NCBI GenBank assembly: GCA_036735545.1
Contig: DAINOD010000007.1
Coordinates: 2,972 to 66,971, forward strand
DNA length: 64,000 nucleotides
Direction: 5' to 3'
Origin: Rubrimonas sp.
GTDB taxonomy: Bacteria; Pseudomonadota; Alphaproteobacteria; Rhodobacterales; Rhodobacteraceae
This document shows positions 6,187-59,887 of the stretch, piece by piece; the stretch's first letter is position 1, and every line of letters begins with the position of its first letter. Both the position numbers and the translations under genes were made by a program. Under the pieces are notes generated by a model. That model saw only the letters and a list, made by a program, of their open reading frames with translations, was not told where the DNA came from and did no database searches.

Positions 6187-6217
6187 GGAGTTCTCCTTCC
6201 TCGGGTCGGGCCGCGGA

Positions 6218-33459: not shown

Positions 33460-35124
33460 ATGTCCGACCTTATGGCCCGCGTTTTCGTCGACGTTTTCGA
33501 CCTCACCACGCTGTCGCTGATGCTGCTGGGCGTCTTCGCAGGCATCATCGCAGGGGCCATCCCGGGCTTCACCATCACGATGGCCGTCGTGCTGACGCTG
33601 CCGTTCACATTCGGGCTGAACGCCGTGGACGGGATCGCCACCATGATGGGCGTCTATGTCGGCGGGCTCTCGGGCGGGTTGTTGTCGGGCATCCTGCTGG
33701 GCATTCCCGGCACGCCCTCCAGCGTGGCCACGACGTTCGACGGTCACCCCATGGCCAGACGCGGCGAGGCGGGGTTCGCGCTCGGGCTCGGCCTGTGGTC
33801 TTCGTTCTTCGGCGGGATCCTGGGCGCGGCGATGCTGGTGGCGCTGGCCCCGCCGCTCGCCCGGATCGGGCTTGAGTTCGGCCCGTGGGAGTACTTTGCG
33901 CTCACCGCCTTCGCGCTGACGATCACCGCCAGCCTGTCGGGCGAGACCCTGCTCAAGGGCCTGATCGCCGCGGTGCTGGGCCTGTTCGTCGCGACCATCG
34001 GCGAGGACGGGATCAACGGCGTGGCGCGTTTCACCTTCGGCTTCGACGACGTGCGACAGGGTTTCTCCGAACTGCCGGTCCTCGTCGGCTTGTTCGCGTT
34101 CAGCCAGTTGATGAGCGACATGCGCGATCCTGCACGCGCCCGAGGGCCCCTGTTCGGCGGCGACGCCGCAACGCCCGTCCGCATCGAGCACCTGCGTGCG
34201 ATCCGGGAGATCGCGCGGCAATGGGTGAACCTGCTCCGCTCCACCTGCATCGGCGTCTTCACCGGCGCGCTGCCAGCGGCTGGCGGGGCGATCTCGAACA
34301 TTCTCGCCTACGACCAGGCGCGCAAGTTCTCTCGCGATCCGAGTGCGTTCGGGACGGGGACGCCGGCGGGCGTCATCGCGCCCGAAAGCTCCAACAACGC
34401 CACGGCCGGCGGCGCGCTGATCATGATGATGGCCCTCGGCATTCCCGGCGACGTGGTGACGGCGGTCATGTTGGGCGCGCTGACGATCCACAACGTCGTG
34501 CCGAGCCCGACCTTCATCCGCGACCAACCGCAAATCGCCTATGCGCTTTTCCTCGCCTTCTTTCTGGCTCACTTCATGATGGTGGGCACGCAGGCCGTGG
34601 CCATTCGCGGCTTTCTGGCGCTCACGCGCGTGCGGTTCTACCTGCTCGGCGTCGTGATCCTGTTCTACTGCGCCGTCGGGGCCTTCGCGCTCAACAACGT
34701 GGGGCAGGACCTCTGGACGCTGCTCGTGTTCGGCGTCCTCGGCTACGGCATGCGGCTGCTGGGATTTCCGTTGGCCCCCATGATCCTCGGCGTCATCCTC
34801 AGCGGCGTCGCCGAGCGCAACCTGTCGCGCGCGGTGTCGATAAGCAGCGACTACACGCTGTTCCTCACGCGCCCGTTCTCGCTGTTCTTCGTGGTGCTGT
34901 CGGTGTTCTCGCTGCTCTACCCGCTGTATCAGGCGCGCCGGGACGTTGCGCGGTGGACGGACTTCTACGGTCCCGCCCTTTGCCTTTCGCTGTCGCCGCC
35001 GCTCATGATGATGCGCGGCGAGGTGCGGCCGGTCGTCGGCGCGGCGCTCGCCGTGGCGGGCCTCTGGCTGGGCTGGCGCGCGCTTCGCGCGCCGAGGCGC
35101 GTCGAAAGGGAGGGCGGAACATGA
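33460..35124 (+). CDS. tctA: TTT large permease TctA
   Basis: Part of ORF 33037..35124. ATG at 33460 (MSDLMARVFVDVFDLTTLSL). GAIPGFTITMAVVLTLPFTFG and GIPGTPSSVATTFDGHPMARRGEAG are TctA signatures. Confidence 0.9.
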   Translation: MSDLMARVFVDVFDLTTLSLMLLGVFAGIIAGAIPGFTITMAVVLTLPFTFGLNAVDGIATMMGVYVGGLSGGLLSGILLGIPGTPSSVATTFDGHPMARRGEAGFALGLGLWSSFFGGILGAAMLVALAPPLARIGLEFGPWEYFALTAFALTITASLSGETLLKGLIAAVLGLFVATIGEDGINGVARFTFGFDDVRQGFSELPVLVGLFAFSQLMSDMRDPARARGPLFGGDAATPVRIEHLRAIREIARQWVNLLRSTCIGVFTGALPAAGGAISNILAYDQARKFSRDPSAFGTGTPAGVIAPESSNNATAGGALIMMMALGIPGDVVTAVMLGALTIHNVVPSPTFIRDQPQIAYALFLAFFLAHFMMVGTQAVAIRGFLALTRVRFYLLGVVILFYCAVGAFALNNVGQDLWTLLVFGVLGYGMRLLGFPLAPMILGVILSGVAERNLSRAVSISSDYTLFLTRPFSLFFVVLSVFSLLYPLYQARRDVARWTDFYGPALCLSLSPPLMMMRGEVRPVVGAALAVAGLWLGWRALRAPRRVEREGGT

Positions 35125-35924
35125 CACCACTGCGCGTCGGGCTGGCGGGACTGGGCGCCGTCGGCAAGGTCGTCGCGGAGCGCCTGATCGATGGGGTTCC
35201 CGGACTGGCGCTGGCGGCGCTCGGCGTTCGCGACGAAGGCCGAGCCCGCGCGGCGCTCCCCCGCTTCGACGGACCCGTCGTCTCGCTGGAGGAACTCGCG
35301 GCGCTGAGCGACGTCGTGGTCGAAGGCCTTCCGCCGCCTGCTTTCCTCAGCGTCGCCGTCCCGGCGCTGGAGCAGGGTCGCATCTTCGTGCCCCTCAGCG
35401 TCGGGCAACTGCTGGAGCACTGGGACCTCGTCGGGCTCGCCGAGGCGCGGGGCGCCCGCATCGTCGTCCCCACCGGCGCGCTGCTGGGGCTCGACGCGGT
35501 GCGCGCGGCGGCGGAGGGCGAGATCCGCTCGGTCGCCATGGTGACGCGCAAGCCGCCCGCCGGGTTGGCCGGCGCGCCGTGGATCGTCTCGCAGGGGTTC
35601 GATCTGGACGGTCTGGCCGAGCCTCTCAAGGTCTTCGAGGGGTCTGTCCGCGAGGGGGCGAAGGGTTTTCCGGCGAACCTCAATGTGGCCGCGGCCCTGA
35701 GCCTCGCCGGAATCGGTCCGGACCGCACGACATTGCAGGTCTGGGCCGATCCGGGCGTCACCCGCAACACCCACACCATAACCGTCGATGCCGACAGCGC
35801 CCGCTTCACCATGACGATCGAGAACGTGCCGACCGTCGAGAACCCCCGCACGGGCCGCATAACGGCGCTCAGCACCGTCGCCGCGCTCAGGGGGCTGACG
35901 GCGCCGCTGCGCATCGGAAGCTGA
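35121..35924 (+). CDS. aspartate dehydrogenase-like NAD(P) oxidoreductase (NadX/DUF108 family)
   Basis: Last 267 codons of ORF 33885..35924. The ATG overlaps the tctA TGA (ATGA). Rossmann RVGLAGLGAVGKVV. C-terminal PANLNVAAALSLAG..NTHTITVDADSARFTMTIENVPTVENPRTGRITALS matches my recollection of L-aspartate dehydrogenases. Confidence 0.8.
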   Translation: MTPLRVGLAGLGAVGKVVAERLIDGVPGLALAALGVRDEGRARAALPRFDGPVVSLEELAALSDVVVEGLPPPAFLSVAVPALEQGRIFVPLSVGQLLEHWDLVGLAEARGARIVVPTGALLGLDAVRAAAEGEIRSVAMVTRKPPAGLAGAPWIVSQGFDLDGLAEPLKVFEGSVREGAKGFPANLNVAAALSLAGIGPDRTTLQVWADPGVTRNTHTITVDADSARFTMTIENVPTVENPRTGRITALSTVAALRGLTAPLRIGS

Positions 35925-36344
35925 TCGCGTCGCCGAACCCGGCCGGCACGCCGTCCAGCGCGGTCTGATTCAGCGCTCGCGCCACGGAACGGGCAGAAAA
36001 CTACGTCAGACAGAAGTCTTGTGGGGTGGGAGAACTGACGTTCGCGTTGAATTCCGGCAGGGTGTGGAGCGCGGAGATTCTCTTGGAAAGCTTTGCGAGG
36101 CTGGCCCGTGCCGGGATACGTCGTATAGCTGCACCGAGAATTACTCTCGCACTTGACCCCTGGATTTGTAATTTGCGATTTTTTCGACAATCCGTGCGTA
36201 TCTGCCCTCGACTATTAGACATAGCCAGGCGCGAACTTGACGTTCCGGCTCTACAGGCCGTGGCGAGCCTGCCGCATCATAGCAACCATTGACTGATTTG
36301 CAGCGATACAGCGCCGCGGCGATTCCGAGCGAACAAAAAGCCTC

Positions 36345-37916
36345 TCACGGCGGCGGCGCCACGCCGGCATAGACCGCGAGGGCGGCGACGAAGGCCGCCA
36401 CCGTCGTGCCGAGTTGGAAGAGGGCGAAGCGCTCGCGCCACCCGGAACCCTCGCCGGCGCTCTGGTTGCCGCGGTTCGACCACTTCTGCTTCGATAAGTG
36501 GAAGATCATGTATATCTTGACCGAAGCGTTTATCAACTGGTTGAAGTAGAGGATGAACGGCCAGCTCAGATCCGGCCTGCGCGCATAACTGTACAGTACG
36601 GTCGACAGAACCAGCCGGGAAGCCACCAGCCAGATCAGCACGTTCCAGAGATAGACGGGGTCGATCAGCGCGGCGAAGATGGCCAGCGCGGGACTGACCA
36701 TCATCGTCCACATCGCGATGCGCTGGTCCACGACGCACCACCAGATGAAGACCGGCATCGCCCTCGGGCCGAGAGCAATCGCCCGGGCGCCGTTTCGAAG
36801 CATGTTGCCGGACCAGCGGCGGAAGTTCTGCACCATGCGCTCCATCCCCGAGCCCTTGATCACTTCGATCGTGTAGACCGTGGCGTCGGGAACGTAGGTC
36901 ATCTTCGCTCCCTTCGAGAGCAGATGATACCAGGTGGACTTGTCGTCGCCGGAAAGGAAGCGGAAGCGGCCCCAGAGCCAGTGGTCCAGATGGTCGGCCT
37001 CGATCGTGCGGATGAACTTCGCATCCACGATGTGGCGGGCGCGGAAGACGCTCATCCGCCCGGTAAGGGTCAGCACGCGGTTCGAGACGGCATGGGACTG
37101 CATCGCGAGCCTGCGCTGGGCGAAACGCATCTCGAGCCAGCCGCCGATCCATCGGGGCCCGTAGCAGAGCACCTCCTCGTCGGTGGTGAGCGCCTCGAGC
37201 GCCGGGTCGGCGCCGAACATCGACAGCGTCTTCTCCAGCACGTCGGCGCCGAACACCGCGTCGCCGTCCATGAAGATGACGAGATCGTCGGGGTCCACGC
37301 CGCTTCGCGCCATGCCGCGCAGGATCAGGCCGATGGCCATGCGCTTGCCCGGCTGATTCTGGCGCACGAAGGTCAACTCGACGAGACCCGGCGGCAAGTC
37401 GGCGCCATGCGTCTCGACGAAGTCGCGGATGATCGTCTCGTCGAAGGCCGAGCCCGTGCCGATCCACAGCGAGGTTGGGATGCGCTCGCGCCGGACCTGC
37501 CGCAGGATCGACCCGATCACCGCGCGCGTGATGGCGGGCTCCTCGAAGTAGGTCGTCATCTGGATGTGGACGCGCCGCGGCCGCCAGCCGGCGGCCCAGA
37601 GCGCCGAGGCCGCGCGGCGCAGGGGCGGCCACTTCGCGCGGCGGAACCACTCCGCCCGCGCGGCGTGGGTGAACCACCAGCCGAAGCGCCAGAGCCCGAG
37701 CGCGCCCAGCGTGAAGGTGAAGGTCTGCAGATCGGGGCTGAGGAAGCGGTTGGGGACGAGCACGGCCAGGCCGAGGATCACGGCCCACAGCGCGCCGTAG
37801 AGCGCCAGAAAGGACGGCGTCCACTTGGCGAGGCCCCGCGGCGCGGGCGCCGCCAGATCGCGCAGGCGCGCGTCGAGGCTTTTGGCGAACGCGTAGTCGC
37901 CCGGGAGCGCCTGCAT
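36345..37916 (-). CDS. alg8: membrane GT2 polysaccharide synthase, Alg8-like (mannuronan synthase catalytic subunit)
   Basis: ORF 36345..37916. N- and C-terminal TM bundles around a GT2 core: IFMDGDAVF (DxD), LTTDEE, FLSGDDKSTWYHLL, and the QxxRW equivalent QNFRRWSGNMLRN. The order and wording of these motifs match my recollection of Pseudomonas Alg8. Confidence 0.75.
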   Translation of the reverse strand: MQALPGDYAFAKSLDARLRDLAAPAPRGLAKWTPSFLALYGALWAVILGLAVLVPNRFLSPDLQTFTFTLGALGLWRFGWWFTHAARAEWFRRAKWPPLRRAASALWAAGWRPRRVHIQMTTYFEEPAITRAVIGSILRQVRRERIPTSLWIGTGSAFDETIIRDFVETHGADLPPGLVELTFVRQNQPGKRMAIGLILRGMARSGVDPDDLVIFMDGDAVFGADVLEKTLSMFGADPALEALTTDEEVLCYGPRWIGGWLEMRFAQRRLAMQSHAVSNRVLTLTGRMSVFRARHIVDAKFIRTIEADHLDHWLWGRFRFLSGDDKSTWYHLLSKGAKMTYVPDATVYTIEVIKGSGMERMVQNFRRWSGNMLRNGARAIALGPRAMPVFIWWCVVDQRIAMWTMMVSPALAIFAALIDPVYLWNVLIWLVASRLVLSTVLYSYARRPDLSWPFILYFNQLINASVKIYMIFHLSKQKWSNRGNQSAGEGSGWRERFALFQLGTTVAAFVAALAVYAGVAPPP

Positions 37917-37917
37917 C

Positions 37918-39327
37918 TCAGCGGCTCCGGCCGAAAAGCGGGCCCAGCAGATCGCGGCGAACCACGATCTCGGCGGGTGCGTTGAAGGGCAGGGCCTCGC
38001 GCGCGGCCCCGGCGGTCATGCCGCTCGCCTCGATGGTGACGATCATCCCGAAAACGTCCGGGGCCGAAGGGTCGGCCCCCGCCTCGACCGCCGCCACGCG
38101 CCCTTCGATCTCCCGCGCCACGCCGCTGCTGCGCAGCAGGATATCGGCCCGCATGCCGATCCGCACCGATCCGGCCAGTCGGTCGTCGAGCCAGCCGCGC
38201 ACCATCCGCGGCGCGTCGGTTTCGAACACGGCGACGGGGTCGCCGGCGCGCACGTATTGCCCCTCGCGCGTCAGCCATTGAACGACGAGGCCGACGGCCG
38301 GCGCCGAGAGATTCATGTACTGTTCGGTCTGGCGCAGTCGCCGCAGATCGGCGACGGCGCGGTCCCGGTCGTTCTCGACGGAGCGCAACGTCGCCTCGAG
38401 CGCCGCGCGCCGATCATTGTGGTCGCCCTGCCGGAGGGGAACGCCCGCATCGAAGCGGCGCAGCGCCGAGGCCGAGTAGAGCCTCTCAACCATGGCGCGC
38501 GCCTCCTCGCGCACCGCGTCATGCGCGGCCAGCCGCGCGCGCGCCTCCGCCGCCATCGTCTCGAGCGCGGCATGCCGCGCGTCGACGTCCGCCAGCGCCT
38601 CCTCGCCCTCCGGCTTCTCGACGCGGGCCAGCACGGTCCCTTCCTGCGTGACGCTGTCCTGCGTCGCGAGCTGGCGGAGATAGCCTTCGCGCGGCGCGGT
38701 CAGCACGAGGCGCTCGGCCGTGACGCGGGCGTGCGACAGCGTCATGCCCTCGATGCGGCTCCAGGCGAGCGAGCCGACGAACCAGACGACCGCCACGAAC
38801 AGGCCCAGATGCCACGCGATGTTCAGCGCCGCGCGAAAGAAGCGGGGACGGGCGCGGGCGACGCCCGCGGCCTTCTCCGCCTCGGTCTCGCCCATCGGGA
38901 TCAGATCGACGGGGGTGTCGAGCGCGGTGATCACCTCCTCGGTTGCGGCCATCCTGCCGACCATGAGGTTGCGGTAGAACAGGCCGAGCGCCTCCCGCTG
39001 GCGGCCGGTCAGACCCTCGAAGGGCCGGAAGCCGCCCTCGCCCACGGGGCCGAACGCCACCGGGAAGCCGACTTCGACGCCCTGGAAGGGGATGAGCAGC
39101 CGCGCCCCGCCCAGATCGCGCCTGGACGGCGCGTCGTCGTAGACGCCCGAGAGCGACCAGCGTCGCACCATGAGCCGCCGGCCGTCCGGCAGGCCGATCA
39201 CGAGCGGCGCGACGACGGTGTGCTCGGTTTCCGGCGCCGGGCGCTCATGCCTGATCTGCACGCCGGAGGGCGCCGCCTCGAAGGTCCCAGGCGCATCGCG
39301 GTCGGCGGCCTGCAAGGGCGTGGTCAT
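37918..39327 (-). CDS. alg44: Alg44-like co-polymerase: PilZ-like N-domain, one TM, HlyD/membrane-fusion-like periplasmic domain
   Basis: ORF 37918..39354 (TTG). ATG at 39327 has a GGGAG 7 nt upstream. N-domain segments RRWSLSGV, LLIPFQGVEVGFPVAF and FEGLTGRQREALGLFYRNLMVGRMA parallel Alg44 DLSAGGF, LLFQVDSISFSLEVEF and FQNLKPREVAALRYLITSYLAGEV. TM AWHLGLFVAVVWFVGSLAW, then a coiled-coil/barrel MFP-like region. The stop is 1 nt from the alg8-like start. Confidence 0.65.
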   Translation of the reverse strand: MTTPLQAADRDAPGTFEAAPSGVQIRHERPAPETEHTVVAPLVIGLPDGRRLMVRRWSLSGVYDDAPSRRDLGGARLLIPFQGVEVGFPVAFGPVGEGGFRPFEGLTGRQREALGLFYRNLMVGRMAATEEVITALDTPVDLIPMGETEAEKAAGVARARPRFFRAALNIAWHLGLFVAVVWFVGSLAWSRIEGMTLSHARVTAERLVLTAPREGYLRQLATQDSVTQEGTVLARVEKPEGEEALADVDARHAALETMAAEARARLAAHDAVREEARAMVERLYSASALRRFDAGVPLRQGDHNDRRAALEATLRSVENDRDRAVADLRRLRQTEQYMNLSAPAVGLVVQWLTREGQYVRAGDPVAVFETDAPRMVRGWLDDRLAGSVRIGMRADILLRSSGVAREIEGRVAAVEAGADPSAPDVFGMIVTIEASGMTAGAAREALPFNAPAEIVVRRDLLGPLFGRSR

Positions 39328-39961
39328 GGCGGCGCTCCCTTCCGTCTCGGTCAAACCGCAGATAACCCAAGCGGGCCGCCTGCGCCGCGCCGATCAGGGA
39401 TGGGCGCAGGGCGCGCCCGGCTCGATCCCCTGTCCGAAAGGATAGGTCCCGCCGCGACCGACCGCGCGGGCCAAGGCTTCAGGCCGGCCGCCCAGCGCTC
39501 ATCGCGGAGACCTCGGCGACGCGCCCGTCCAGCGGCGGCGTCCCGATCTTCCGATGCGTCGACAGCCTGCCGTGCTGCGATGTGGACGGCGTCGAACCGT
39601 TCGGCGTCGGGCTGAGCCACATGATCGCCGTCGCCATCGGCGACACGATCCCTGGCGCCGAACGTGGCCGCGCGCAGGACGAAAGAACGGCGGTGGCGCG
39701 GCTGAACGCTCGCAGCGCGGCGCAGGCGTAGAAGACCGCCGCGCGTCTGGGCGGCTGGTCGCTGACGGTGATCGGCGACGTCGAGGCACTGGGGCGGCGC
39801 GGCCCCCGAGCAGTCCCGCTCGCGCCGTTCGCCGACGATGCAGCCTGACGCGCAGCCGACCGCGACCCTACCCGTTCGGATAGGGCGACCCTCCCGTCGC
39901 GCGCTGGCCTTCGCGACCGTGGGGCGTAAGGTGGCGATCGTCCGGGTGGAAGGATCGAACG

Positions 39962-41140
39962 GTGCGCATCGCGACAGCCAGATCCGTCGCCCGGTCGGCG
40001 ACGCAGGCGGCCGAGGAACTCGCGGCGGAGCTGGGCGTCGACACCCTTGGCGCCCCGGACTTCCTCGCGGTCCACTTCTCGGCGGGCATCGACGCCGAGG
40101 CGTTGCGTGGGGCCGCCTTGGCGCGGTTGGGGACGGCGACGCTCCACGGCGGGTCGTCCTGCCTTGGGGTCATGTCCCAAGCGGGCGTGGACATCGAGGG
40201 CGGCGTCGGCGCGCTCGCGATCTGGGATCAGGCTGGCGACTATGGCGTTGCGTCGGCCACGCTCGGCGCGGACGCGCGCGAGGCCGCGCGCACGGCCGCC
40301 ACGGCGGCGCTCACGGCGGCGGGGCGGCCCGGCGAAATGCCCGAGCTGGTCTGGCTGTCGGTCGCCCCGGGGCGGGAGGAGGAGGCGCTGGCGGGTCTGC
40401 GGGACGCTCTCGGGCCCGACGCGCTGATCGTCGGGGGCAGTTCCGCCGACGATCATGTGAGCGGCGGCTGGCGGCAGTTCGGGCCTGAGGCCTCACACGC
40501 CGACGGCGTCGTGGTCTCGACGCTGTTTCCCTCGGCCCCTGTGGTGTCGATCTATCAGAGCGGCTACGCGCCGACCGGCGAAAGCGGCGTCGTCACCCGT
40601 GTCGACGGGCGACGCCTCTACGAGATCGACGGCCGGTCGGCCGCCGAGATCTATGGCCGCTGGACCGGCGGCGCGGTCCCCGCGGCGACCGACGCGCCCG
40701 TCTCGATCCTCGCCGCCGCCACACTCTGGCCGCTCGGGCGGGTGACGCGCCATGTGGCGGGCGTGCCGTTCCACCTGCTGGCGCATCCGGCGGCCGCGCA
40801 CCCCGACGGATCGCTGGACCTGTTCGCCGACGTCGCGGTCGGCGATCGGCTCTGGCAGATGCAGGGATCGGGCGACAGCCTCGTGGCGCGCGCGGGCCGG
40901 ATCGCGCGACAGGCGCGCGAGCAGGCGGGCGGGACCGTGCGCGGCGCGCTGATCGTCTATTGCGGCGGCTGCATGCTCGCGGTGCGCGAGCGGATGCACG
41001 AGGTCCGCGCCGGCGTCGAGGCCGCGCTGGGTGGCGCGCCCTGGCTCGGGGTGTTCACTTTCGGGGAACAGGGCGCGCCGCTGGGCGGGCGGTCCGAACA
41101 CGGCAACCTGATGATCTCCTGCACCGCTTTCGGAGGTTGA
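39962..41140 (+). CDS. stand-alone FIST_N + FIST_C protein (same architecture as the NO sensor NosP)
   Basis: ORF 39962..41140 (GTG after GGAAGGA). FIST-like PDFLAVHFSAGIDAEALRGAALARLGTATLHGGSSCLGVM. FIST_C-like GALIVYCGGCMLAV..LGVFTFGEQG..HGNLMISCTAF. No output domain. Confidence 0.7.
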   Translation: MRIATARSVARSATQAAEELAAELGVDTLGAPDFLAVHFSAGIDAEALRGAALARLGTATLHGGSSCLGVMSQAGVDIEGGVGALAIWDQAGDYGVASATLGADAREAARTAATAALTAAGRPGEMPELVWLSVAPGREEEALAGLRDALGPDALIVGGSSADDHVSGGWRQFGPEASHADGVVVSTLFPSAPVVSIYQSGYAPTGESGVVTRVDGRRLYEIDGRSAAEIYGRWTGGAVPAATDAPVSILAAATLWPLGRVTRHVAGVPFHLLAHPAAAHPDGSLDLFADVAVGDRLWQMQGSGDSLVARAGRIARQAREQAGGTVRGALIVYCGGCMLAVRERMHEVRAGVEAALGGAPWLGVFTFGEQGAPLGGRSEHGNLMISCTAFGG

Positions 41141-41143
41141 GGC

Positions 41144-41695
41144 ATGAAGGGCGTCATCTTCGTCGAACTCCTCGCCATGGCGGAGGACGCTTTCGGCGAG
41201 GCGGTGGTCGACCGCGTGATCGAGGCTGCGCGGCTGCCGTCAGGCGCCGCCTACACGAGGACCGGCAATTACCCCTGCGAGGAACTGCTGACGCTTGTCC
41301 GCGCCTTCGCGGCGTTGGACGGGAGCTCCGAGGACGCTCTCCAGCGCTCTTTCGGTCATTGGACCATGCGGAGCTTCGAGCGGCACTATCCCCGGTTCTT
41401 CTCCGGTCACGCCGGCAGCCTCGACATGCTGTCGGGGATCGAGGACGATATCCACGCCGAAGTGCGCAAGCTTTATCCCGACGCGGACCTTCCCAGCTTC
41501 GAGACGGTGCGACATGGCCCCGACGCGCTGGACATGACCTACAGGTCGCCCCGCCCGCTCGCCGCGTTCTGCCACGGGCTGATCGAGGCGTGCGTCGAGC
41601 ATTTCGGCGAGCGCGCGCGCATCGAGCGCCGCGACCCCGGCGTCGAGAACCGGACGGAGGCGCGCTTCAGCATCCGGACCGCCCCTCCGGAATGA
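41144..41695 (+). CDS. hnoX: H-NOX (heme nitric oxide/oxygen binding) protein
   Basis: ORF 41144..41695. MKGVIFVELLAMAEDAFGEAVVDRVI N-terminus. Candidate proximal His104 (IEDDIHAEVRKLYP, nt 41453-41455). Y133-R-S135-P-R137 = YxSxR heme-propionate motif (nt 41540-41554). 183 aa, starts 3 nt after the FIST gene. Confidence 0.8.
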   Translation: MKGVIFVELLAMAEDAFGEAVVDRVIEAARLPSGAAYTRTGNYPCEELLTLVRAFAALDGSSEDALQRSFGHWTMRSFERHYPRFFSGHAGSLDMLSGIEDDIHAEVRKLYPDADLPSFETVRHGPDALDMTYRSPRPLAAFCHGLIEACVEHFGERARIERRDPGVENRTEARFSIRTAPPE

Positions 41696-44600
41696 GCGAG
41701 CGCGACCCGGCGGCTCCGGTCTCCCGGGCGCGCTACGAGCGCGAGCGGCGCGCGCGCGCCGAAGCGGAGGCCCTGCTCGAGACCAAGAGCCGCGAACTCT
41801 TCGAGGCGAGCCGCCGCCTGGTGCTGGAGAGCGAGGCCGTGCGCGCCGCGCTGGCCGAGACCCACGCCCTGCGCGCGCGCGAGGCCGAGGCGCTTGAGGA
41901 GCAGTCGATCTTGTCCGGCGCCCTGGCCGCGCTGTCGGGGCGCGACGGCGCGGCCGAGGCCATGCAGGCGCTGCTCGAGACCCTGCGCTCGGGTTTCTCG
42001 GCCTCCCTGGCCTGCTACGTGCAGGCGGCGGGACCGACGCTGCGCATCGCGGCCAGCGCAGGCGCCGGCGGCGCCGGGACCGACCTGCCCGTTGCTGCCG
42101 GGCTGATCGACCGGCCGCGCCGCATCGCGGGGCTCGCGGCTCTCGCCGATGGCCGCCCCCTGCCGGGGCGCATCGCCGACTGCGCCGCCGTTCTCGTGGC
42201 GCCGCTCAGGCTGCCCGAGGAGGCGGCGGGCGCGCTGCTGCTGGGCGCGACCGAGGCGGGTGGTTTCTCGGCCGCCAGACTACGCCTGCTTGACCGCGTG
42301 GCGGCGGTGGCGACGCCTGCGCTGACAGCGCTCCGAGCCGCGCGGCGCAACGCGCTGCTGGTCTCCCTTATCGAGGGGCGGCCGATAGCGGGCGAAGGCG
42401 GCGTGCTCGACACCCCCCTGGAAGCCGTGCACCGGGCCTTCGCCAGGCTGACCGACATGCAGGGCGAGGTCGTGGGGGTCCTCGACGCGCTGCTCGGCGC
42501 TCCGCTGGCCGAGGCGGACGCGGCGATCGAGGCGGCGCTGGCCCGGATGGGAGCGCTGACGCGCAGCGACCGCGTCCATGTCGTCAGATTCAGCGACGAC
42601 GGAGACGCCGGCGGGACCAGCCACGCATGGCGCCGGCGCGGGGCAAGGGCCTTGCGCGAGGGGCCCGAGGGTATCCCCGCCGCGACAATGGCCGCCTGGC
42701 GGGAGGCCTTCGGCGACGGGCGCGACGTGCTCATCCCCGACGTGACGATCATGCCTGACGATGCTCCGGAGAAGGCGATCCTGCTCGGCCAGGGCGTCCG
42801 CTCCCTGTTCGGCACGCCCATGATCGATCACGGCGCGCTGCGCGGGATCGTCTGCTACGAAACGGCGACGGCGCAGCGCAGCCTGCTGCCCGGCGAGGTC
42901 TATCTGATCCGCTCCGTGGCGAGGGTCATCGCGACGCTGCTGGCGAGGCGCGACGCCGAGGCGGCGCTTCACGCCGCCAATGCCGAGACCGAGGCCGAGC
43001 GCGCCCGGCTGCAGTCCGTTCTGGCGGCGATGCCCGACCTGCTGATCGAACTCGATCGCGACGGCCAGACTGTAGGCTGGCGCTCTGGCGAAGGCGTCCG
43101 GCCTGCCGCCTTCGCCGCCGGAGCAGAGGGCCGCACGCCGGAGCAGGCGCTGCCCGAGCCTCTCGCGGCGCACGCGCGCGCCATGACCGTCGAGATCGAC
43201 GCCGGCCGCCGGCCTCAGCCGCGCGTGTTCGCCCATCCTCCAGACGGCGACGCGGCGCGCTGGTGGCAGGTCTCGGCCTCGGCGCTGGCGGAGCGCGGCT
43301 ATCTGCTGGTGCTGCGCGACGTCACCGAGGCGCGCGCGCAAACGGCCCTCATCGAGCGCCTCTCCGAGATCGCGCGGCGCACGACCAACCTCGTGGTGGT
43401 CACCGACGCCGAACGGCGCATCGAGTGGGTGAACGCGGCCTTCGAGCGCGCCACGGGCTGGCGGCTCGATGAGGTGCGGGGCGACGGCGCGGGCCGCCTG
43501 CTGCAATGCGAGGCCACCGATCCGGCGACCGTGGCGCGGCTTCGCGCGGCGCTCGACGCGGGCGAGGCGATACAGGCCGAGATCCTCAACCGCGCGCGCG
43601 ACGGCCGACACTACTGGGTTGCGCTCGACATCCAGCCGCTGCGCGACGCCGCGGGCGCCCTGCAGGGTTTCATGGCCGTGGAGATCGACGTCACCGAACG
43701 CCGCGCCCAGGCCGACGCGCTGCGCGCCGCCGCCGACGATGCAGCGCGGGCGCGCGCGACGCTGGAGGCTGCGGTGGGAGCGCTGCAGGACGGCTTCGCG
43801 CTCTACGACGCCGAGGACAGGCTCGTGATCTGCAACGAGCGCTACCGTCAGGTCTATCCCCGCTCCGCCGAAGCCATCCGGCCGGGCGAAACCTTCGAGG
43901 CGATCCTGCGCGCGGGCCTCGCGCTGGGGGAGTACGCCGACGCCGTGGGGCGCGAGGAGGATTGGCTCGCCGAGCGCCTCGCCCGCCACCGCGCACCCTA
44001 CAACGAGGTGGAGCAGCGGCTCTCGGATGGCCGGTGGCTGCGCGTCTTCGAGAAGGCGACCCCCGACGGCGGGCGGGTCGGCCTGCGGGTCGACATCACG
44101 GCGCTGAAGCGCGCCGAGCAGCGGGCGCTCGCCGACCGCTCCGCCGCCATGGAGGCGAGCCAGGACGGCATCGCCATCACCGACGCCGAGGGGCGGTTCG
44201 TCTACATGAACCGCGCACACCTCGCCCTGTTCGGGTTTGACGACGAGGCGCAGGTGATCGGCCGCCCGTGGAGCATCCTCTACGCGCCCGACGCGGCGCG
44301 GTGGATGGAGGCGAACGCGCTTCCCGCGCTTCGGCGCACGGGGCGCTGGTCGGGCGAGATCATGGGCCGCGCCCGAGACGGCGCGCCGGTGGACCAGGAC
44401 GTGTCGCTCACGCTGAAGGACGACGGCGGAATCCTGTGCATCGTGCGCGACATGCTTTTCCGTCGCCGCGAGGCGGAGGAGCGCGAGCGGCTGCGCGAGG
44501 AACTCCGGCTCTCGCAGCGCCGCGAGATCATCGGGCGGACGGCGGCGGGGCTCGCGCACGATTTCAACAACCTGCTTGCGGCGATTTCGGGCGGCGCCGC

Positions 44601-45648
44601 GCTCATCGAGGCGGGGGCCGAGGCGGGCGGGGTCGCCGCCGCCGGGGCCGCGCGCATCCAGAAGGCGGCCGATCAGGCGGCGGGCCTCGTGCGGCGGCTG
44701 CTGTCGCTCGGCGCGCGGCCCCAGCCGAGCGCGCCGCTCGACATGCGAAAGACGCTGGTCGAGGCGGGTCAACTTGTGCGCGCCGGCCTGCGGGCTCCCG
44801 CGCGCCTGCGCGTCGAGACGCCCGATGCGCCGATGATGGCGCTGGCGGACGCCACCGATGTCCTTCAGGTGGCGCTGAACCTCGCCATCAACGCCCGCGA
44901 CGCGCTTGGCGGGGCCGCGGGCGAGATCGTCCTCGCGCTGAGCGAGGCGCGGAGCGACGATCTGGCGGGCCCTTTCGTCGCGGGCGCGGTGGACCCGAGG
45001 CGGCCCTATCTGCTGCTGAGCGTTCGCGACGATGGGCCCGGCATGACCCCCGAGCTCGCGGCTCAGGTTTTCAGGCCCTATTTCACCACCAAGGGCGACG
45101 AAGGCTCGGGACTGGGCCTCGCCGTCGTCGCGTCGGTCGTCACGGCCCATGGCGGGGCGGTCCGGCTCGATACCGCGCCGGGGCGCGGCGCGCGCTTCGA
45201 CGTGTTGTGGCCGGCGGCGGACGGCGCAGCGCCGACCGCCGCCGGAGCGGTCGACGGGCTGAGCGGGCGGCTCGACGGCCGGGCCGTCCTCGTCGTCGAC
45301 GACGATCACGACGTGCTCGCGACGCATGTCGCGATCCTGGAGGCGGCCGGGGCGGAGGTCGCGCCGTCCACCGATCCGGCGGATGCGCTGGAGGCGCTTG
45401 TCGAGGATCCGGACGCCTGGGACCTGCTGGTGACCGACTTCGACATGCCCGGCATGACCGGCGCCGAACTCACCGGGCGCGCACGCGCGATAGTTCCCCG
45501 GCTGCCCGTGGTGCTTGTGACCGCGCTGGCGGGCGCCGGGTGGCGCGAGGGAGCGACCTTCGACGCCGTGCTGCCCAAGCCCGTGGGGCGCGAGGCGCTT
45601 GTCATCGCCGTCGAGACGGCGATACTCGCGCGGCGAGACAAGGTTTGA
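41692..45648 (+). CDS. cytoplasmic hybrid sensor histidine kinase (coiled coil, 2 GAF-like, ~4 PAS, HisKA, HATPase_c, receiver)
   Basis: Part of ORF 40960..45648. ATG at 41692 overlaps the H-NOX TGA (ATGA). No TM segment. PAS-like blocks (e.g. NLVVVTDAERRIEWVNAAFERATGW; DGFALYDAEDRLVICNERYRQVYP; DGIAITDAEGRFVYMNRAHLALFGF). H-box AAGLAHDFNNLLAAI, G-box GDEGSGLGLAVV. Receiver VLVVDDDHDVL..LLVTDFDMPGMTG..LPKPV. Confidence 0.85.
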   Translation: MSERDPAAPVSRARYERERRARAEAEALLETKSRELFEASRRLVLESEAVRAALAETHALRAREAEALEEQSILSGALAALSGRDGAAEAMQALLETLRSGFSASLACYVQAAGPTLRIAASAGAGGAGTDLPVAAGLIDRPRRIAGLAALADGRPLPGRIADCAAVLVAPLRLPEEAAGALLLGATEAGGFSAARLRLLDRVAAVATPALTALRAARRNALLVSLIEGRPIAGEGGVLDTPLEAVHRAFARLTDMQGEVVGVLDALLGAPLAEADAAIEAALARMGALTRSDRVHVVRFSDDGDAGGTSHAWRRRGARALREGPEGIPAATMAAWREAFGDGRDVLIPDVTIMPDDAPEKAILLGQGVRSLFGTPMIDHGALRGIVCYETATAQRSLLPGEVYLIRSVARVIATLLARRDAEAALHAANAETEAERARLQSVLAAMPDLLIELDRDGQTVGWRSGEGVRPAAFAAGAEGRTPEQALPEPLAAHARAMTVEIDAGRRPQPRVFAHPPDGDAARWWQVSASALAERGYLLVLRDVTEARAQTALIERLSEIARRTTNLVVVTDAERRIEWVNAAFERATGWRLDEVRGDGAGRLLQCEATDPATVARLRAALDAGEAIQAEILNRARDGRHYWVALDIQPLRDAAGALQGFMAVEIDVTERRAQADALRAAADDAARARATLEAAVGALQDGFALYDAEDRLVICNERYRQVYPRSAEAIRPGETFEAILRAGLALGEYADAVGREEDWLAERLARHRAPYNEVEQRLSDGRWLRVFEKATPDGGRVGLRVDITALKRAEQRALADRSAAMEASQDGIAITDAEGRFVYMNRAHLALFGFDDEAQVIGRPWSILYAPDAARWMEANALPALRRTGRWSGEIMGRARDGAPVDQDVSLTLKDDGGILCIVRDMLFRRREAEERERLREELRLSQRREIIGRTAAGLAHDFNNLLAAISGGAALIEAGAEAGGVAAAGAARIQKAADQAAGLVRRLLSLGARPQPSAPLDMRKTLVEAGQLVRAGLRAPARLRVETPDAPMMALADATDVLQVALNLAINARDALGGAAGEIVLALSEARSDDLAGPFVAGAVDPRRPYLLLSVRDDGPGMTPELAAQVFRPYFTTKGDEGSGLGLAVVASVVTAHGGAVRLDTAPGRGARFDVLWPAADGAAPTAAGAVDGLSGRLDGRAVLVVDDDHDVLATHVAILEAAGAEVAPSTDPADALEALVEDPDAWDLLVTDFDMPGMTGAELTGRARAIVPRLPVVLVTALAGAGWREGATFDAVLPKPVGREALVIAVETAILARRDKV

Positions 45649-45653
45649 CAGAA

Positions 45654-46271
45654 ATGCGCGTGCTGATCGCCGATGACCACGACCTGTTGCGCGACACCCT
45701 CGAACTGTGGTTCCGGCAAGAGAAGATCGACGTCGTCTCGGCGCGCGACCTCGACGCCGCGATGGCGGCCGTGGCGGCGGCCACCGAACCCTTCGACCTG
45801 ATCTTGCTCGACTACACCATGCCCGGCATGAACGGGCTCGACGGGCTTGGCCGCGCGCTGCGGGAGGGCGGCGGGACGCGCGTCGCCATCATGTCGGGGA
45901 GCGCCCCGCGCGAGGTGGCCGAGCGCGCGCTCGAGTCCGGCGCCTCCGGCTTCCTGCCCAAGACGCTGCCCGCCCGCACGCTGGTCAACGCCGTCCGCTT
46001 CATGGCGATGGGCGAGCAGTACGCGCCGGTCGACTTCATGACCGCGCCGCCCGAGGCGACGCCGGTCAACCCGCTCGCGGAGCGGCTGACCGCGCGCGAG
46101 TTGGACGTGCTGGAGAAGCTCTGCGAAGGGCTCGCCAACAAGGAGATCGCCCGCGCCCTCGGCATCCAGGAGCCCACGGTCAAGCTCCACATGAAGACGC
46201 TCTATCGCAAGATCGGCGCGAGCAACCGCACCCAGGCCGCGATGATGGCGAAACAGGCGGGCTTGTTCTAG
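45654..46271 (+). CDS. NarL/FixJ (LuxR-type HTH) response regulator
   Basis: Last 205 codons of ORF 44268..46271. ATG 5 nt after the kinase stop. Receiver MRVLIADDHDLLRD..LILLDYTMPGMNG..LPKTL. HTH LTARELDVLEKLCEGLANKEIARALGIQEPTVKLHMKTLYRKIG. Confidence 0.9.
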   Translation: MRVLIADDHDLLRDTLELWFRQEKIDVVSARDLDAAMAAVAAATEPFDLILLDYTMPGMNGLDGLGRALREGGGTRVAIMSGSAPREVAERALESGASGFLPKTLPARTLVNAVRFMAMGEQYAPVDFMTAPPEATPVNPLAERLTARELDVLEKLCEGLANKEIARALGIQEPTVKLHMKTLYRKIGASNRTQAAMMAKQAGLF

Positions 46272-46708: not shown

Positions 46709-48091
46709 ATGCTGAACCAAAGCGTCGCCCTCTTCGGCTCGACCGCCCCTGCCGCCCGCCCCGTCGTCTCCGTGGTCGGGCTCGGCTATGTGGGCGCCGT
46801 CTCCACCGCCTGCCTCGCAGGCCTAGGCCACCGCGTCGTCGGCGTGGACGTCGACCCGGTCAAGGTTCAGGCGGTCGGCGAAGGGCGCTCGCCGATCCAC
46901 GAGGCCGATCTCGGTCGTCTGCTCTCCGAGGGCGTCGCCGCGGGTCGCATCTCCGCCACCCACGACCTGCCCGCCGCTGTGGTCGCCTCGGACGTGACCT
47001 TCGTCTCGGTCGGCACGCCCACCGCCGCCGACGGCGGTTGCGACCACCGCTACATCGTCGCCGCCGCGCGCGGCATCGGCGAGGGCCTCAAGCGCAAGGG
47101 CGCCTTCCATGTCGTCGTGATGCGCTGCTCGATCCCGCCGGGCTCGACCATGGGCGTCATGGTCCCCGAAATCGAGGCCGCCTCGGGCCTGACCGCCGGC
47201 CGGGACTTCGGCGTGTGCTTCAACCCCGAGTTCCTGCGCGAAGGGGTGGCGGTCGCCGACTTCCACGCGCCGCCCAAGACGGTGATCGGCGTGACCGACC
47301 CCGCCACCGCCGCGCTGATGGCCCGTCTCTACGCCGACGTCGACGCGAACCCCATCGTCACCTCGATCGAGGTCGCCGAGATGGTGAAGTATGTCGACAA
47401 CGTCTGGCACGCCGCCAAGGTCACCTTCGCCAACGAGGTCGGCCGGCTGTGCAAGCCGCTCGACGTGGACAGCCACGAGGTGATGAACATCTTCGTGCGC
47501 GACACGAAGCTGAATCTGTCGCCCTACTATCTCCGGCCCGGCTTCGCCTATGGCGGCTCGTGCCTTCCCAAGGAAGTGCGCGCGGTCGCTCACCTGGCGG
47601 AAAGGCTCGGCGTCGACCTGCCGCTGATCGGCGCGCTCGACCGCTCGAACGCCAGCCAGATCGCCGAGGCGGCGCGGATGGTGAAGGCGACAGGGGCCCG
47701 CCGCGTCGCGGTGCTGGGCCTCGCCTTCAAGCCGGGCACCGACGATCTGCGCGAGAGCCCGATCCTCGAAGTCATGGCCGATCTTCTCGACCACGGCGTC
47801 GAGATCCTCGCCCACGACCCCGCGATCACCGCCGAGACGCGCATCGAGGCGCAGCTCGGCTACGTCGCCCACGCCTCGAAGGGCCTCGGGCGCCTCGCGA
47901 GCGGCCTTCGCGCCATGCTGGCGGACAGCGCGGCCGAGGCCGTCGACGCCGCCGACGCGGTGATCGTCACCCACGCGCACCCCGCCTACCGCGCGCTCGC
48001 CGCCGTCGCCGGCAAGCCGGTGATCGACGTGGCGCGACTGTGGATGTCCCGCGCCGACCAGCCCGCCCACCTCCAGGGCATCGGCTGGTGA
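46709..48091 (+). CDS. algD: GDP-mannose 6-dehydrogenase (AlgD-like)
   Basis: Part of ORF 46448..48091. ATG after AGGAG. [75 protein letters not shown]; C-terminal ..LQGIGW. These parallel Pseudomonas AlgD (..[24 protein letters not shown].., ..[24 protein letters not shown].., ..GICW) as I recall it. Confidence 0.8.
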   Translation: [460 protein letters not shown]

Positions 48092-48125: not shown

Positions 48126-48539
48126 ATGACCCTGCACGCACCCCTGCTCGCTGCGCCCTCCGCCGTCCCCGCCGATGCGCCGCTGCACGAGAACCGCCCC
48201 TGGGGCGCATTCTGGAGCCTCGACCGCGGCGCCGCGCATCAGGTGAAGCGCATCCGCGTCAATCCCAAGGGCCGGCTGTCGCTGCAGTATCACCACCACC
48301 GCGCCGAGCGCTGGGTGGTGATCGAGGGCACCGCCACGATCACCGTCGACGACGCCGTGATGAAGGTGAAGCCCGGCGGCGTGGTGATGATCCCGAAGGG
48401 CGCGGTTCACCGGCTGGAGAACCTGACCAGATCCCCCGTCGAGATCATCGAGGTCCAGATGGGCGACTACCTCGGCGAGGACGACATCGTGCGCCTCGAC
48501 GACGCCTACGGACGACCCGGGCGCGTGGCGCGCGGCTGA
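48126..48539 (+). CDS. stand-alone type II phosphomannose isomerase cupin domain (AlgA/ManC C-terminal-like)
   Basis: ORF 48126..48539. ENRPWGAFWSL..VKRIRVNPKGRLSLQYHHHRAERWVVIEGTA..IPKGAVHRLEN..EIIEVQMGDYLGEDDIVRLDDAYGR is the PMI-type cupin. No nucleotidyltransferase domain. Confidence 0.7.
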   Translation: MTLHAPLLAAPSAVPADAPLHENRPWGAFWSLDRGAAHQVKRIRVNPKGRLSLQYHHHRAERWVVIEGTATITVDDAVMKVKPGGVVMIPKGAVHRLENLTRSPVEIIEVQMGDYLGEDDIVRLDDAYGRPGRVARG

Positions 48540-48594: not shown

Positions 48595-50703
48595 GTGAAT
48601 CACATGACGACTGCGATCACGCCCGTCCTCGGGACGGCCGGGAACGACGTGCTGCACGGCGCCGCCGGCGGCGACATCATTTCCGGGCGCCAGGGCGACG
48701 ACATCCTTCACGGCCATGGCGGCGATGACCTGATCCATGGCGGTTCGGGCAACGACACGATCCATGGCGGCGCCGGCGACGACATCCTCTACGGCGGCGG
48801 CGGGCCGACGCTGCTGCGGATGGATCGACTGACCATCGCCGAGGATTACCTGGGCCGCGTGACCTTCATCGATGAAGGCGCAGGGTTCCGCAACACACTC
48901 GGAATGTACCGGATTGGCGAGGATGGTACGATTTCGGACGTGCAGATCCTGTTTCTGAACGCCTCGAAGGTCGGATCGGGCGGCGACCTGATCCCGGGTC
49001 AATCCCATGTCGATGTTCCGTTGCAGGCGGGCGACCAGATCGGGTTCTTCATCCTGTCGAACGGCTTCGGGCAAACCACAGGCCGGCTTCCGACCGCGCC
49101 GGGAACGTTCGAGTTCAGAAACGCCGCAGGGCAGCCCGGCAACATCGACAATCAGGGTAACCTGACGCTCTGGCATGTCGCGCCCGATGGCGCGCGGACC
49201 GCCATGCGCACGCAATACGGCACCGACACCTACCATGCGGCCGCGCGCCCCGAAAACAACTTCGCGCTGAACCCCGACAATTTCGGCCACACGGTTGGTC
49301 GTCTGGAAACCCGGCAGGGCGCCGTGCTGCTGGGCTTCGAGGATTTGCGCAACGGGGGAGACAAGGACTTCGACGACGTCATGTTCCGCTTCGATGTCGG
49401 CCAGTCGAATGCACGCGTCCTCGACCCCAACATCGTCTACGGCGCGGATGCCGAGGTGGCGCCCTCGTTCTTCTACGACGCGGACGGCATCCGTCGCGAC
49501 ATGCAGGGCGAGGTCCTCGATCAGGAGAATGACGTCATCCATGGCGGCGACGGCGACGACACGATCTATGGCGGCGTCGGGCATGACCGCCTCCATGGCG
49601 GCGATGGCGACGACGTCATCTACGGCAACTCCGGCGACGACATTCTCTGGGGCGACCGGGGCGACGACACGCTCTATGGCGGCAAGGGGGATGACATCCT
49701 CCATGGCGGCGCAGGCAACGACGAGTTGCACGGCGACAGCGGAAACGACACGCTCCATGGCGGCGACGGCGACGACGTTCTTTACGGTGGATCGGGCGAT
49801 GATGTCCTGCATGGAGATGCCGGCAACGACACGCTCTATGGCGGCGCCGGCAACGACACGCTCTACGGCGGCTCTGGCGACGACGTGCTGGACGGCGGCA
49901 GCGGCAACGACTGGCTTTATGGCGGCGCGGGCAACGACACCCTGCACGGCGGTGATGGCGAGGACGTCCTGTTCGGCGGCACGGGCAGCGACAGGCTGTA
50001 CGGCGGGGCGGGTGACGACATCCTGCATGGCGGGGACGGCAACGACTATCTCGATGGCGGATCCGGCGACGACGAGTTGTATGGCGGGATCGGCAACGAC
50101 GAACTGCATGGCGGGGCAGGCGATGACCTGCTCGACGGCGGCGAGGGCGACGACAAGCTCCATGGCGGGGCCGGGAATGACGTTCTGCATGGCGGGGCCG
50201 GCAACGATCAGCTTTGGGGCGGCACCGGCAACGACATCCTCCATGGAGGTGACGGCGACGACCGCCTTTATGGCGGGGAAGGCGACGACATCCTTCATGG
50301 CGGCGACGGCGACGACCGGCTCGAAGGCGGCAAGGGCGACGACGTCCTCCATGGCGGCGCGGGCGACGACCGGCTGTTCGGCGGCGAGGGTGACGACATC
50401 CTGATCGGCGGCGCCGGCGCCAACGTCCTGACCGGCGGCGCCGGCGCGGATTGCTTCGTGTTCGACGTGGCGGTGTCGGCGACCGACCGGATCACCGATT
50501 TCGAGTGCGGCGTCGACCGGATCGAGATCTTCGGCCTGCTCGGCGAGGGTTTCTCCCCCGTTACATTCCGCGAGGCCAGCTTCGGGATCGACGACGCCGG
50601 GACAGTCCGCATCGCCGAGGGCGGATGGTCGGTCGAGATCACGAACCGCTTCGGAGTCGGCGACTTCGCGGCGCAGGTCTGGGACAGCGTGCTCTTCGTG
50701 TGA
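48595..50703 (+). CDS. RTX (hemolysin-type Ca-binding) repeat protein with central DUF4114-like domain
   Basis: ORF 48595..50703, 702 aa. GGxGxDxUx nonapeptides at aa ~14-70 and aa ~312-620. Central [45 protein letters not shown] matches DUF4114. About 80-aa non-repeat C-terminus, as in T1SS substrates. No signal peptide. Confidence 0.85.
48634..48804 (+). repeat. N-terminal block of ~6 RTX nonapeptide repeats
   Basis: [53 protein letters not shown] read from the ORF translation. Confidence 0.85.
49528..50454 (+). repeat. C-terminal block of ~34 consecutive RTX nonapeptide repeats (27-nt periodic DNA)
   Basis: aa 312-620 ([24 protein letters not shown] ... [19 protein letters not shown]). 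The DNA is correspondingly periodic (ggcggcgMcggcgacgac variants). Confidence 0.9.
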
Positions 50704-56770: not shown

Positions 56771-56771
56771 G

Positions 56772-57245: not shown

Positions 57246-57267
57246 GGCGCGGGTCCGGCCGGCGTGT

Positions 57268-58248: not shown

Positions 58249-58384
58249 GTTTTCCTCCCCGGACTTCTTTGTGTTTTTGGCGGTGCGATTCGAAGATGGC
58301 CGACGGACGGCGTGACGTACGACCAATCGCAGGTTGACCTTCGGCGTCCGCTGGCGCAACCCTTTCCGAAGCTGGAGGAGTTCG

Positions 58385-59878: not shown

Positions 59879-59887
59879 GAGGCGCGG

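Follow-up and report, generated by a model that had tools for sequence, protein, structure and literature searches.

A divergent Alg8/Alg44-like synthase pair in Rubrimonas sp. and its place among the reduced alginate-like gene clusters of Alphaproteobacteria

What would an Alg8/Alg44-like synthase pair produce, how would it be controlled, and by which route would its product leave a Gram-negative cell, when no periplasmic or outer-membrane alginate machinery is encoded alongside it? This question is raised by two adjacent reverse-strand genes of Rubrimonas sp., at positions 36345-39327 of a 64-kb stretch of approximately 72% G+C, the whole of which we analysed and refer to below as the window. 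A sequence-only reading of this DNA had described the pair as a synthase core in inverted gene order and had proposed that its export partners are encoded elsewhere, that its HlyD-like protein recruits a TolC-like channel, or that the product is not secreted alginate. In the present study we compared the pair and its neighbourhood with related loci and with characterized systems, and we consider that it probably forms the inner-membrane core of an ‘atypical alginate’ cluster of Alphaproteobacteria. The locus is a reduced member of a widespread alginate-like cluster, noticed bioinformatically but uncharacterized, and is set apart by a degenerate PilZ domain and a hairpin resembling those of TolC adaptors.

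The Alg8-family synthase and its divergent Alg44 partner

Because long spurious open reading frames (ORFs) are common at 72% G+C, genes were called by codon-position G+C. The two genes of the pair are the following:

37918-39327, reverse strand: Alg44-like co-polymerase, HlyD-like, 469 aa, referred to as the partner (Pfam HlyD_3, E 3e-14; hhalign, AlphaFold2 and Foldseek)
36345-37916, reverse strand: Alg8-type GT2 polysaccharide synthase, 523 aa (similarity to Pseudomonas putida Alg8; Pfam Glyco_tranf_2_3, E 7e-27)

Both have a third-position GC of 0.91, a value to be expected of genuine genes at a genomic GC content of 72%. The partner gene starts with an ATG at 39327, directly preceded by the bases GAAGGGAG, and is separated from the GT2 gene by a single base (37917); the two genes are translationally coupled, with the partner first. 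On the 3′ side of the GT2 gene lie 420 non-coding bases followed by a convergent aspartate-dehydrogenase gene, and since these border the pair downstream we regard it as a two-gene operon. The coordinates and the 1-nt gap are thus exactly as the sequence-only reading had them, and its remark that the order is inverted relative to Pseudomonas agrees with the P. putida locus L063, in which alg8 precedes alg44. The non-coding stretch (35925-36344) has a G+C content of approximately 55-60%, clearly below that of the remaining window sequence; it yielded no convincing terminator, and a scan for promoter and terminator consensus sequences around the pair gave nothing above chance. A reverse-strand ORF at 35003-36190, considered as a candidate AlgX-/AlgL-like gene, was rejected, as codon-position GC identified the real gene there as the aspartate dehydrogenase (35121-35924, forward strand).

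As a reference for the GT2 protein, 80 Pseudomonas alg loci were fetched, and the representative P0420 was confirmed as Pseudomonas Alg8 by genome scan. The GT2 protein is 35% identical with Alg8 of P. putida PSE7 over 440 of 493 aa (E 4e-82), and the catalytic motifs are aligned, with FMDGDAV facing VIDGDTV (DxD) and LSGDDKSTW facing LTGDDKSSW (GDDKS); the DxD and GDDK columns are invariant among 25 clade members. The DxD and GDDK(S) residues were reportedly found by Remminghorst, Hay and Rehm in 2009 to be essential in P. aeruginosa Alg8. At E < 1e-5 the GT2 protein has 1831 relatives, the best 120 of which are 67-85% identical; the named ones among these 120 belong to Rhodobacterales or Hoeflea, and the source annotations of several relatives read ‘glycosyltransferase Alg8’ or ‘mannuronan synthase’. 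The family is compact, given that only 501 of 1.84 billion representative proteins matched at E < 0.001 when searched exhaustively, and the nearest named relatives, Roseinatronobacter monicus and Roseovarius sp., fall within an 84%-identity cluster. The only NCBIfam match was a weak one to NodC, and PDB sequence searches with the GT2 protein, single-sequence and profile, gave no match. By its sequence, the GT2 protein belongs to the Alg8 family of synthases.

Conservation is much lower in the partner than in the GT2 protein: the homologues of the partner are 33-58% identical and carry only HlyD or AcrA-like annotations. Pairwise BLASTP against P. putida Alg44 gave a marginal match (E 1e-4); profile-profile comparison (hhalign) with seven Pseudomonas Alg44 sequences gave a probability of 95.9% (E 6e-9), collinear over residues 23-466, and the N-terminal part alone gave 57% (E 1e-4). 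In the AlphaFold2 (AF2) model of the whole partner, which has a predicted local distance difference test score (pLDDT) of 84, a small β-barrel with a helix is followed by one transmembrane (TM) helix and a membrane-fusion domain. Foldseek returned only efflux adaptors for this whole model, with MacA, EmrA and MexA on top, and a PilZ match emerged only once the N-terminal domain was modelled separately (pLDDT 71). The best PDB matches were then PilZ domains, those of P. aeruginosa Alg44 (4XRN, 4RT1 and 4RT0) ranking first with a probability of 1.00 and TM-scores of 0.6-0.65. A Pfam scan of the partner gave no PilZ match, and PDB sequence and profile searches with it yielded only generic adaptors and biotinyl-domain proteins, and no solved Alg8-Alg44 complex. 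The parts of the protein map as follows:

38959-39216, reverse strand: PilZ-like β-barrel and C-terminal helix, aa 38-123 (Foldseek, Alg44 PilZ structures on top)
38749-38844, reverse strand: single TM helix, aa 162-193 (AF2 helix)
38320-38613, reverse strand: α-helical hairpin, aa 239-336 (AF2 helices 239-271 and 303-336; gap in the hhalign alignment)

In the family alignment, an invariant juxtamembrane motif, ALDTPVDLxPMGETE, precedes the TM helix and closes a strongly conserved cytoplasmic N-terminal region. On the basis of the profile-profile homology and the Alg44-type PilZ match, these data show that the partner is a divergent Alg44 with a PilZ fold, a TM helix and a membrane-fusion domain. 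The assignment of the pair to Alg8/Alg44, as first proposed from the sequence, is therefore very probable, being carried by BLAST identity for the GT2 protein and by profile and fold for the partner, and the pair does not belong to a different, already characterized synthase family.

The motifs by which Alg44 binds cyclic di-GMP (c-di-GMP) are not retained in the partner: E33...T37 are found where RxxxR would be expected, and DxSxxG has given way to RWSLSG. This is a property of the family, since the residue corresponding to R17 of Alg44, with which RxxxR begins, is Asp or Glu in 30 of 33 partner homologues and that corresponding to R21 is mostly His; in the same 33 sequences the Asp of DxSxxG (D44) is variable, and S46 and G49 are kept as WSLxG. 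As the RxxxR arginines are lost throughout the clade, canonical c-di-GMP gating is predicted to be gone, a conclusion that we hold to be rather more probable than its opposite. According to Galperin and Chou (bioRxiv 10.1101/814665), the c-di-GMP motifs are always preserved where a PilZ domain is part of a fusion protein such as Alg44; the partner clade, lacking RxxxR, is an exception and a counter-example to this statement.

Two further observations concern the synthase family. Many Alg8-family proteins, among them the representatives P0253, P0247, P0242, P0245, P0251 and P0258, are 780-960 aa long and carry C-terminal extensions, of which one is a PL14 polysaccharide lyase, one is a pectate-lyase/epimerase-like β-helix and the others have no Pfam match. 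In addition, the 84%-identity GT2 cluster (that of P0002) includes two proteins of R. monicus, one encoded on a contig of 3.77 Mb and the other on one of 224 kb, which suggests that the gene has been duplicated or that an extrachromosomal replicon carries a copy.

Linked precursor, sensor and RTX genes

Divergently from the pair, on the side of the partner gene, the window encodes a run of genes on the forward strand:

39528-39797, forward strand: manC relic (mannose-1-phosphate guanylyltransferase), approximately 90 codons (tblastn)
39962-41140, forward strand: FIST-domain protein, a NosP-like putative nitric oxide (NO) sensor (Pfam FIST and FIST_C; weak NCBIfam NosP match)
41144-41695, forward strand: H-NOX haem NO-binding protein (Pfam HNOB, E 3e-35)
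41692-45648, forward strand: GAF/PAS hybrid histidine kinase with receiver, approximately 1300 aa (Pfam GAF, several PAS, HisKA, HATPase_c and Response_reg)
45654-46265, forward strand: LuxR/GerE-type response regulator (Pfam Response_reg and GerE)
46709-48091, forward strand: AlgD-type GDP-mannose 6-dehydrogenase (similarity to P. putida AlgD)
48126-48539, forward strand: stand-alone cupin corresponding to the C-terminal mannose-6-phosphate isomerase domain of AlgA/ManC (Pfam MannoseP_isomer, E 1e-39)
48595-50703, forward strand: RTX calcium-binding repeat protein with a DUF4114 passenger (Pfam HemolysinCabind, 17 copies, and DUF4114)

The sequence-only reading had taken the synthase core to be all that is present, and in this it was mistaken, having overlooked the AlgD homologue, the AlgA-type cupin, the manC relic and the RTX gene; a dedicated sensor module also lies beside the pair. 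The dehydrogenase, the AlgA-derived cupin and the RTX gene lie 7-11 kb from the pair, behind the NosP/H-NOX/hybrid-kinase/LuxR module. The dehydrogenase is 42% identical with P. putida AlgD over its whole length (450 aa, E 2e-122) and 64% identical with the corresponding gene of a Shimia cluster, and its best PDB match is the GDP-mannose dehydrogenase 1MFZ (373 bits), the best UDP-glucose dehydrogenase scoring 274 bits. A UDP-glucose dehydrogenase identity for this gene was considered and set aside in favour of GDP-mannose dehydrogenase on the AlgD and PDB comparisons. The cupin covers positions 360-467 of TIGR01479 and is 52% identical with aa 345-467 of Shimia AlgA. The manC relic covers aa approximately 275-383 of the ManC proteins of the related loci L082, L087, L088 and L089, with 42-49% identity and E values of 1e-9 to 2e-12 (tblastn); neither the N-terminal 270 aa of ManC nor PMM gave a tblastn match in the window.

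At 39962-46265, the genes for two putative NO sensors share an operon with those for a hybrid kinase and for a LuxR-type regulator; the start of the kinase gene overlaps the end of the H-NOX gene (ATGA). The FIST gene is 66% identical with that of locus L087, the LuxR regulator is 48% identical with the regulator beside the Shimia cluster, and the same module stands beside the pair in Ciceribacter and in several metagenomic relatives.

We read 12 related loci, containing close and distant members of the pair, from Rhodobacterales, Rhizobiales and metagenomes; the named sources are Pontivivens ytuae, Hoeflea prorocentri, Shimia sp., Cognatiyoonia sediminum, Ciceribacter sp. and Gemmobacter nectariphilus. 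The partner precedes the GT2 gene in all 12, the two genes overlapping or lying a few bases apart. Just after the pair, most of these loci have AlgA (full-length or cupin only, the latter also in Pontivivens and Cognatiyoonia), an AlgD-type dehydrogenase and RTX; many have a LuxR regulator with a PAS hybrid kinase, and several also FIST and H-NOX. In the closest relatives, a divergent manC and PMM lie directly before the partner, which indicates that the window has suffered a local deletion at this point. In Shimia and Cognatiyoonia, algF, an MBOAT gene (algI) and two ALGX-domain genes (algJ and algX) are found directly upstream of the partner. A Sel1-repeat protein occupies this position in L082, L083 and L088; the Sel1 match of one such protein has an E value of 3e-26, accompanied by a weak peptidoglycan-binding domain, and its AlgK match is at the level of the repeats only (E 0.002).

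The RTX protein is a probable type I secretion substrate. It was also considered as a secreted mannuronan C5-epimerase of the Azotobacter type and rejected as such, as only its repeats match PDB entries, it has no β-helix A-module and the passenger varies among relatives. The RTX gene follows algD in nine of the 12 related loci (L081, L082, L084-L086 and L091-L093 being those listed), with DUF4114, DUF6923 or Peptidase_M10_C as the passenger, and in L082 and L083 a type I secretion ABC transporter and adaptor adjoin it. A second, different type of Alg8 cluster, in which the GT2 protein is approximately 35% identical, is plasmid-borne in L090 (Tateyamaria omphalii pDOK1-4-5) and is also found on 13 further plasmids or chromids, from Rhizobium, Loktanella, Jannaschia and Salipiger; its genes encode a sugar dehydrogenase, the GT2 protein, a hypothetical protein, a nucleotidyltransferase, a right-handed β-helix protein, a Sel1-repeat protein and a heparin-lyase-I-like protein.

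Elsewhere in the window, an ABC exporter with a fused membrane domain adjoins a GT4 glycosyltransferase and an ORF of 428 aa for which Pfam gave no match (1962-7504, reverse strand), a locus that may serve unrelated glycan or peptide export. Two sulfatase genes in tandem (58316-61345, forward strand) have as neighbours a mandelate-racemase-family gene and, at 55280-58539, a second set of TctABC tricarboxylate-type transporter genes, all of which together suggest a locus for the utilization of sulfated sugars.

Export route, control and rival explanations

The window was searched for alginate export and modification genes by six-frame tblastn using P. putida AlgK, AlgE, AlgG, AlgX and AlgL, Shimia AlgF, AlgI and the AlgJ-like and AlgX-like proteins, and the PMM and Sel1 proteins of relatives as queries, and none of them gave a match at E < 0.01. 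Pfam and NCBIfam scans of approximately 60 window ORFs likewise found no alginate export or modification machinery, no OEP/TolC family member and no porin. The earlier statement that algK, algE, algG, algX and algL, as well as algI, algJ and algF, are missing from the 64 kb is thus upheld by both approaches. AlgK and AlgE are also absent within 10 kb of the pair in the 12 related loci, as are an AlgE-like porin, AlgG and AlgL in all 12, so that a full alg export cluster adjoins the pair neither here nor there. What the window does retain of the canonical system, besides the synthase, is linked algD and algA, the latter only as a cupin domain plus the manC relic.

From these data we propose the following. 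The synthase would polymerize GDP-mannuronate into a polymannuronate-type acidic polysaccharide, which would be pushed through the inner membrane. A mannuronate-type product is likely, as predicted from the sequences of the linked genes, and with AlgD and AlgA homologues linked to the pair a product other than mannuronate becomes less probable. Enzymes encoded by the cluster would neither O-acetylate nor epimerize the polymer in this genome, and in Shimia-type relatives it would probably be O-acetylated. Control would have moved to the adjacent NosP/H-NOX-hybrid kinase-LuxR module, becoming transcriptional and possibly NO-responsive, such that the neighbouring sensor kinase and regulator probably act in place of c-di-GMP.

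The polymer would then leave the cell not via AlgK and AlgE, the hairpin of the partner instead docking a TolC-family channel encoded elsewhere. The hairpin is modelled by AF2 at pLDDT above 90 and has no counterpart in Alg44, its approximately 90 residues facing only a short loop of Pseudomonas Alg44 in the hhalign alignment. Its tip is the best-conserved periplasmic part of the protein (H269, R277, F292, the invariant D293, G295 and G301-D302), and the modelled hairpin is of a type typical of the TolC-docking adaptors that serve in tripartite pumps and in type I secretion. The two features that we looked for as signs of a GT2-adaptor-TolC system, the adaptor-then-synthase order and the modelled α-hairpin, are both present. 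As the partner has a hairpin with a conserved tip and Alg44 has none, docking to a TolC-family channel is the most likely of the routes considered. TolC-type export is nevertheless the weakest step of the proposed mechanism; it is plausible on fold, tip conservation and analogy, and we hold it to be possible at somewhat less than even probability. The TolC option of the sequence-only reading thereby gains indirect support from the modelled α-hairpin and from published precedents for GT2-membrane-fusion protein (MFP)-TolC systems. That the whole clade has been rewired, with a PilZ domain that no longer reads c-di-GMP, an NO-sensing NosP/H-NOX switch, and a TolC-docking Alg44 that replaces AlgK/AlgE and shares its duct with RTX, is a speculative extension that we consider rather doubtful.

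Several points weigh against this interpretation. Neither the window nor, within 10 kb of the pair, any of the 12 related loci contains a tolC gene, so the link to TolC is drawn only from fold and analogy, and no RLS-type TolC-binding motif is recognizable at the hairpin tip. The Sel1-repeat protein upstream of the partner in three close relatives hints at an AlgK-like scaffold over TolC. The retention of WSLxG in the second PilZ motif leaves room for non-canonical nucleotide binding. With PMM missing and manC reduced to a relic, the precursor must be supplied from elsewhere. In addition, we found no measurement of a polymer or phenotype for any clade member in the literature searched.

The hint from the Sel1 proteins leads to an alternative in which a classical AlgK-like tetratricopeptide repeat (TPR)/Sel1 lipoprotein and an AlgE-like porin are encoded elsewhere and the hairpin contacts peptidoglycan or AlgK. 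The position of these proteins directly upstream of the partner in L082, L083 and L088 favours it, as do the contact between AlgK and Alg44 in Pseudomonas (PMC9734138) and the fact that the window covers only 64 kb of the genome. We nevertheless consider it unlikely, because an AlgE-like porin was found neither in the window nor within 10 kb at the 12 related loci, and because the Sel1 protein is AlgK-like only in its repeats and is missing in the window and at most of the loci. It is less probable still that the product is something other than secreted alginate, either a polymer of another kind, built from some other nucleotide sugar, or a mannuronan that remains periplasmic or cell-bound and is not released as free polymer. 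In favour of this, the NCBIfam models that score the dehydrogenase are only generic ones and those for UDP-glucose dehydrogenase, an epimerase, a lyase and a porin are all lacking, and the substrate of the Alg8 clade is a predicted one. However, the dehydrogenase is nearer to GDP-mannose dehydrogenase by 100 bits, AlgA/ManC and PMM travel with the pair, joined in two genomes by the alginate-specific acetylation set AlgF-I-J-X, and in Pseudomonas it is AlgL that deals with alginate accumulating in the periplasm (PMC9734138), a protein that is absent here.

The losses described above also invite the view that the pair in this genome is a decaying, non-functional remnant of a larger cluster, manC having shrunk to a relic of approximately 90 codons, the PMM gene before the partner having gone, the acetylation genes being absent and AlgA being reduced to a cupin domain. 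This we regard as very improbable, since both frames of the pair are intact at a third-position GC of 0.91, their 1-nt coupling is kept, and algD and the regulator module are intact; cupin-only AlgA is shared with Pontivivens and Cognatiyoonia, and the invariant columns of both family alignments are all kept, the window sequence itself being one aligned row in each. The reading of the pair as the inner-membrane core of an atypical alginate cluster is the one that we prefer.

Work on alginate synthesis has been confined almost entirely to Pseudomonas and Azotobacter, and c-di-GMP binding by Alg44 and export via AlgK/AlgE have been treated as its defining steps. The present clade, common in marine Rhodobacterales and in some Rhizobiales, keeps Alg8, Alg44, AlgD and AlgA and appears to have dropped both. 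If the polymer is mannuronan, algae- and particle-associated roseobacters would be an overlooked marine bacterial source of alginate-like material, and the clade would amount to a natural experiment in which a synthase-dependent system has changed both its outer-membrane exit and its regulator.

Comparison with known systems

In the alg operon of Pseudomonas and Azotobacter, with the order algD-8-44-K-E-G-X-L-I-J-F-A, the synthase genes stand the other way round from those of the window, where the pair is inverted with a 1-nt gap. The two systems share full-length GT2 homology with DxD and GDDK, the PilZ-TM-MFP architecture of the partner and linked AlgD-type and AlgA-type genes, and relatives of the window cluster also share AlgF, AlgI, AlgJ and AlgX. 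Unlike the Pseudomonas and Azotobacter operons, the window cluster has no AlgK, AlgE, AlgG or AlgL, its Alg44 has lost RxxxR family-wide and has gained a periplasmic α-hairpin of approximately 90 aa, and a NosP/H-NOX two-component module and an RTX protein are encoded in linkage with the pair.

Of one kind with the window cluster are the ‘atypical’ alginate operons of environmental bacteria, lacking algKE and modification genes, that were described by Bundalovic-Torma et al. in 2020 (PMC7112194), with which the window shares an Alg8-type synthase together with AlgD and AlgA, and the loss of algKE and of modification genes. For Dinoroseobacter shibae, the supplement of that survey lists AlgD, AlgA, Alg8, AlgF, AlgI, AlgJ and AlgX and no Alg44, with two genes beside alg8 left unassigned. 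By name and length, the Dinoroseobacter Alg8 belongs to the same clade as the GT2 protein of the window, and we infer that one of the two unassigned genes encodes a divergent Alg44 like the partner. The window cluster, having no acetylation genes, is more reduced than the D. shibae operon. The survey contains no functional, structural or regulatory analysis and does not assign a partner, which is identified in the present study as a divergent Alg44, and our search for literature on Alg8/Alg44 in Rhodobacterales, roseobacters and Alphaproteobacteria found no functional study.

The export route proposed above has its nearest analogue in the bicistronic bgsBA of Sinorhizobium meliloti, which encodes an HlyD-type adaptor followed by a GT2 protein and needs an unlinked TolC for the production of mixed-linkage β-glucan (PMC13438883, 2026); the same paper cites an analogous cyanobacterial system for extracellular cellulose (Maeda et al. 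2018). A tblastn search of a plasmid collection with the window adaptor gave no match at E <= 1e-3, the presence in that collection of pSymB, which carries bgsB, not being confirmed. The systems differ in that the GT2 protein of the window is of the Alg8 family and not a cellulose/curdlan synthase, and in that the window adaptor carries an N-terminal PilZ-like domain. The window pair and bgsBA are alike in being alphaproteobacterial bicistrons in which an adaptor with a fold of the TolC-docking type precedes a GT2 synthase and no outer-membrane gene is encoded in cis.

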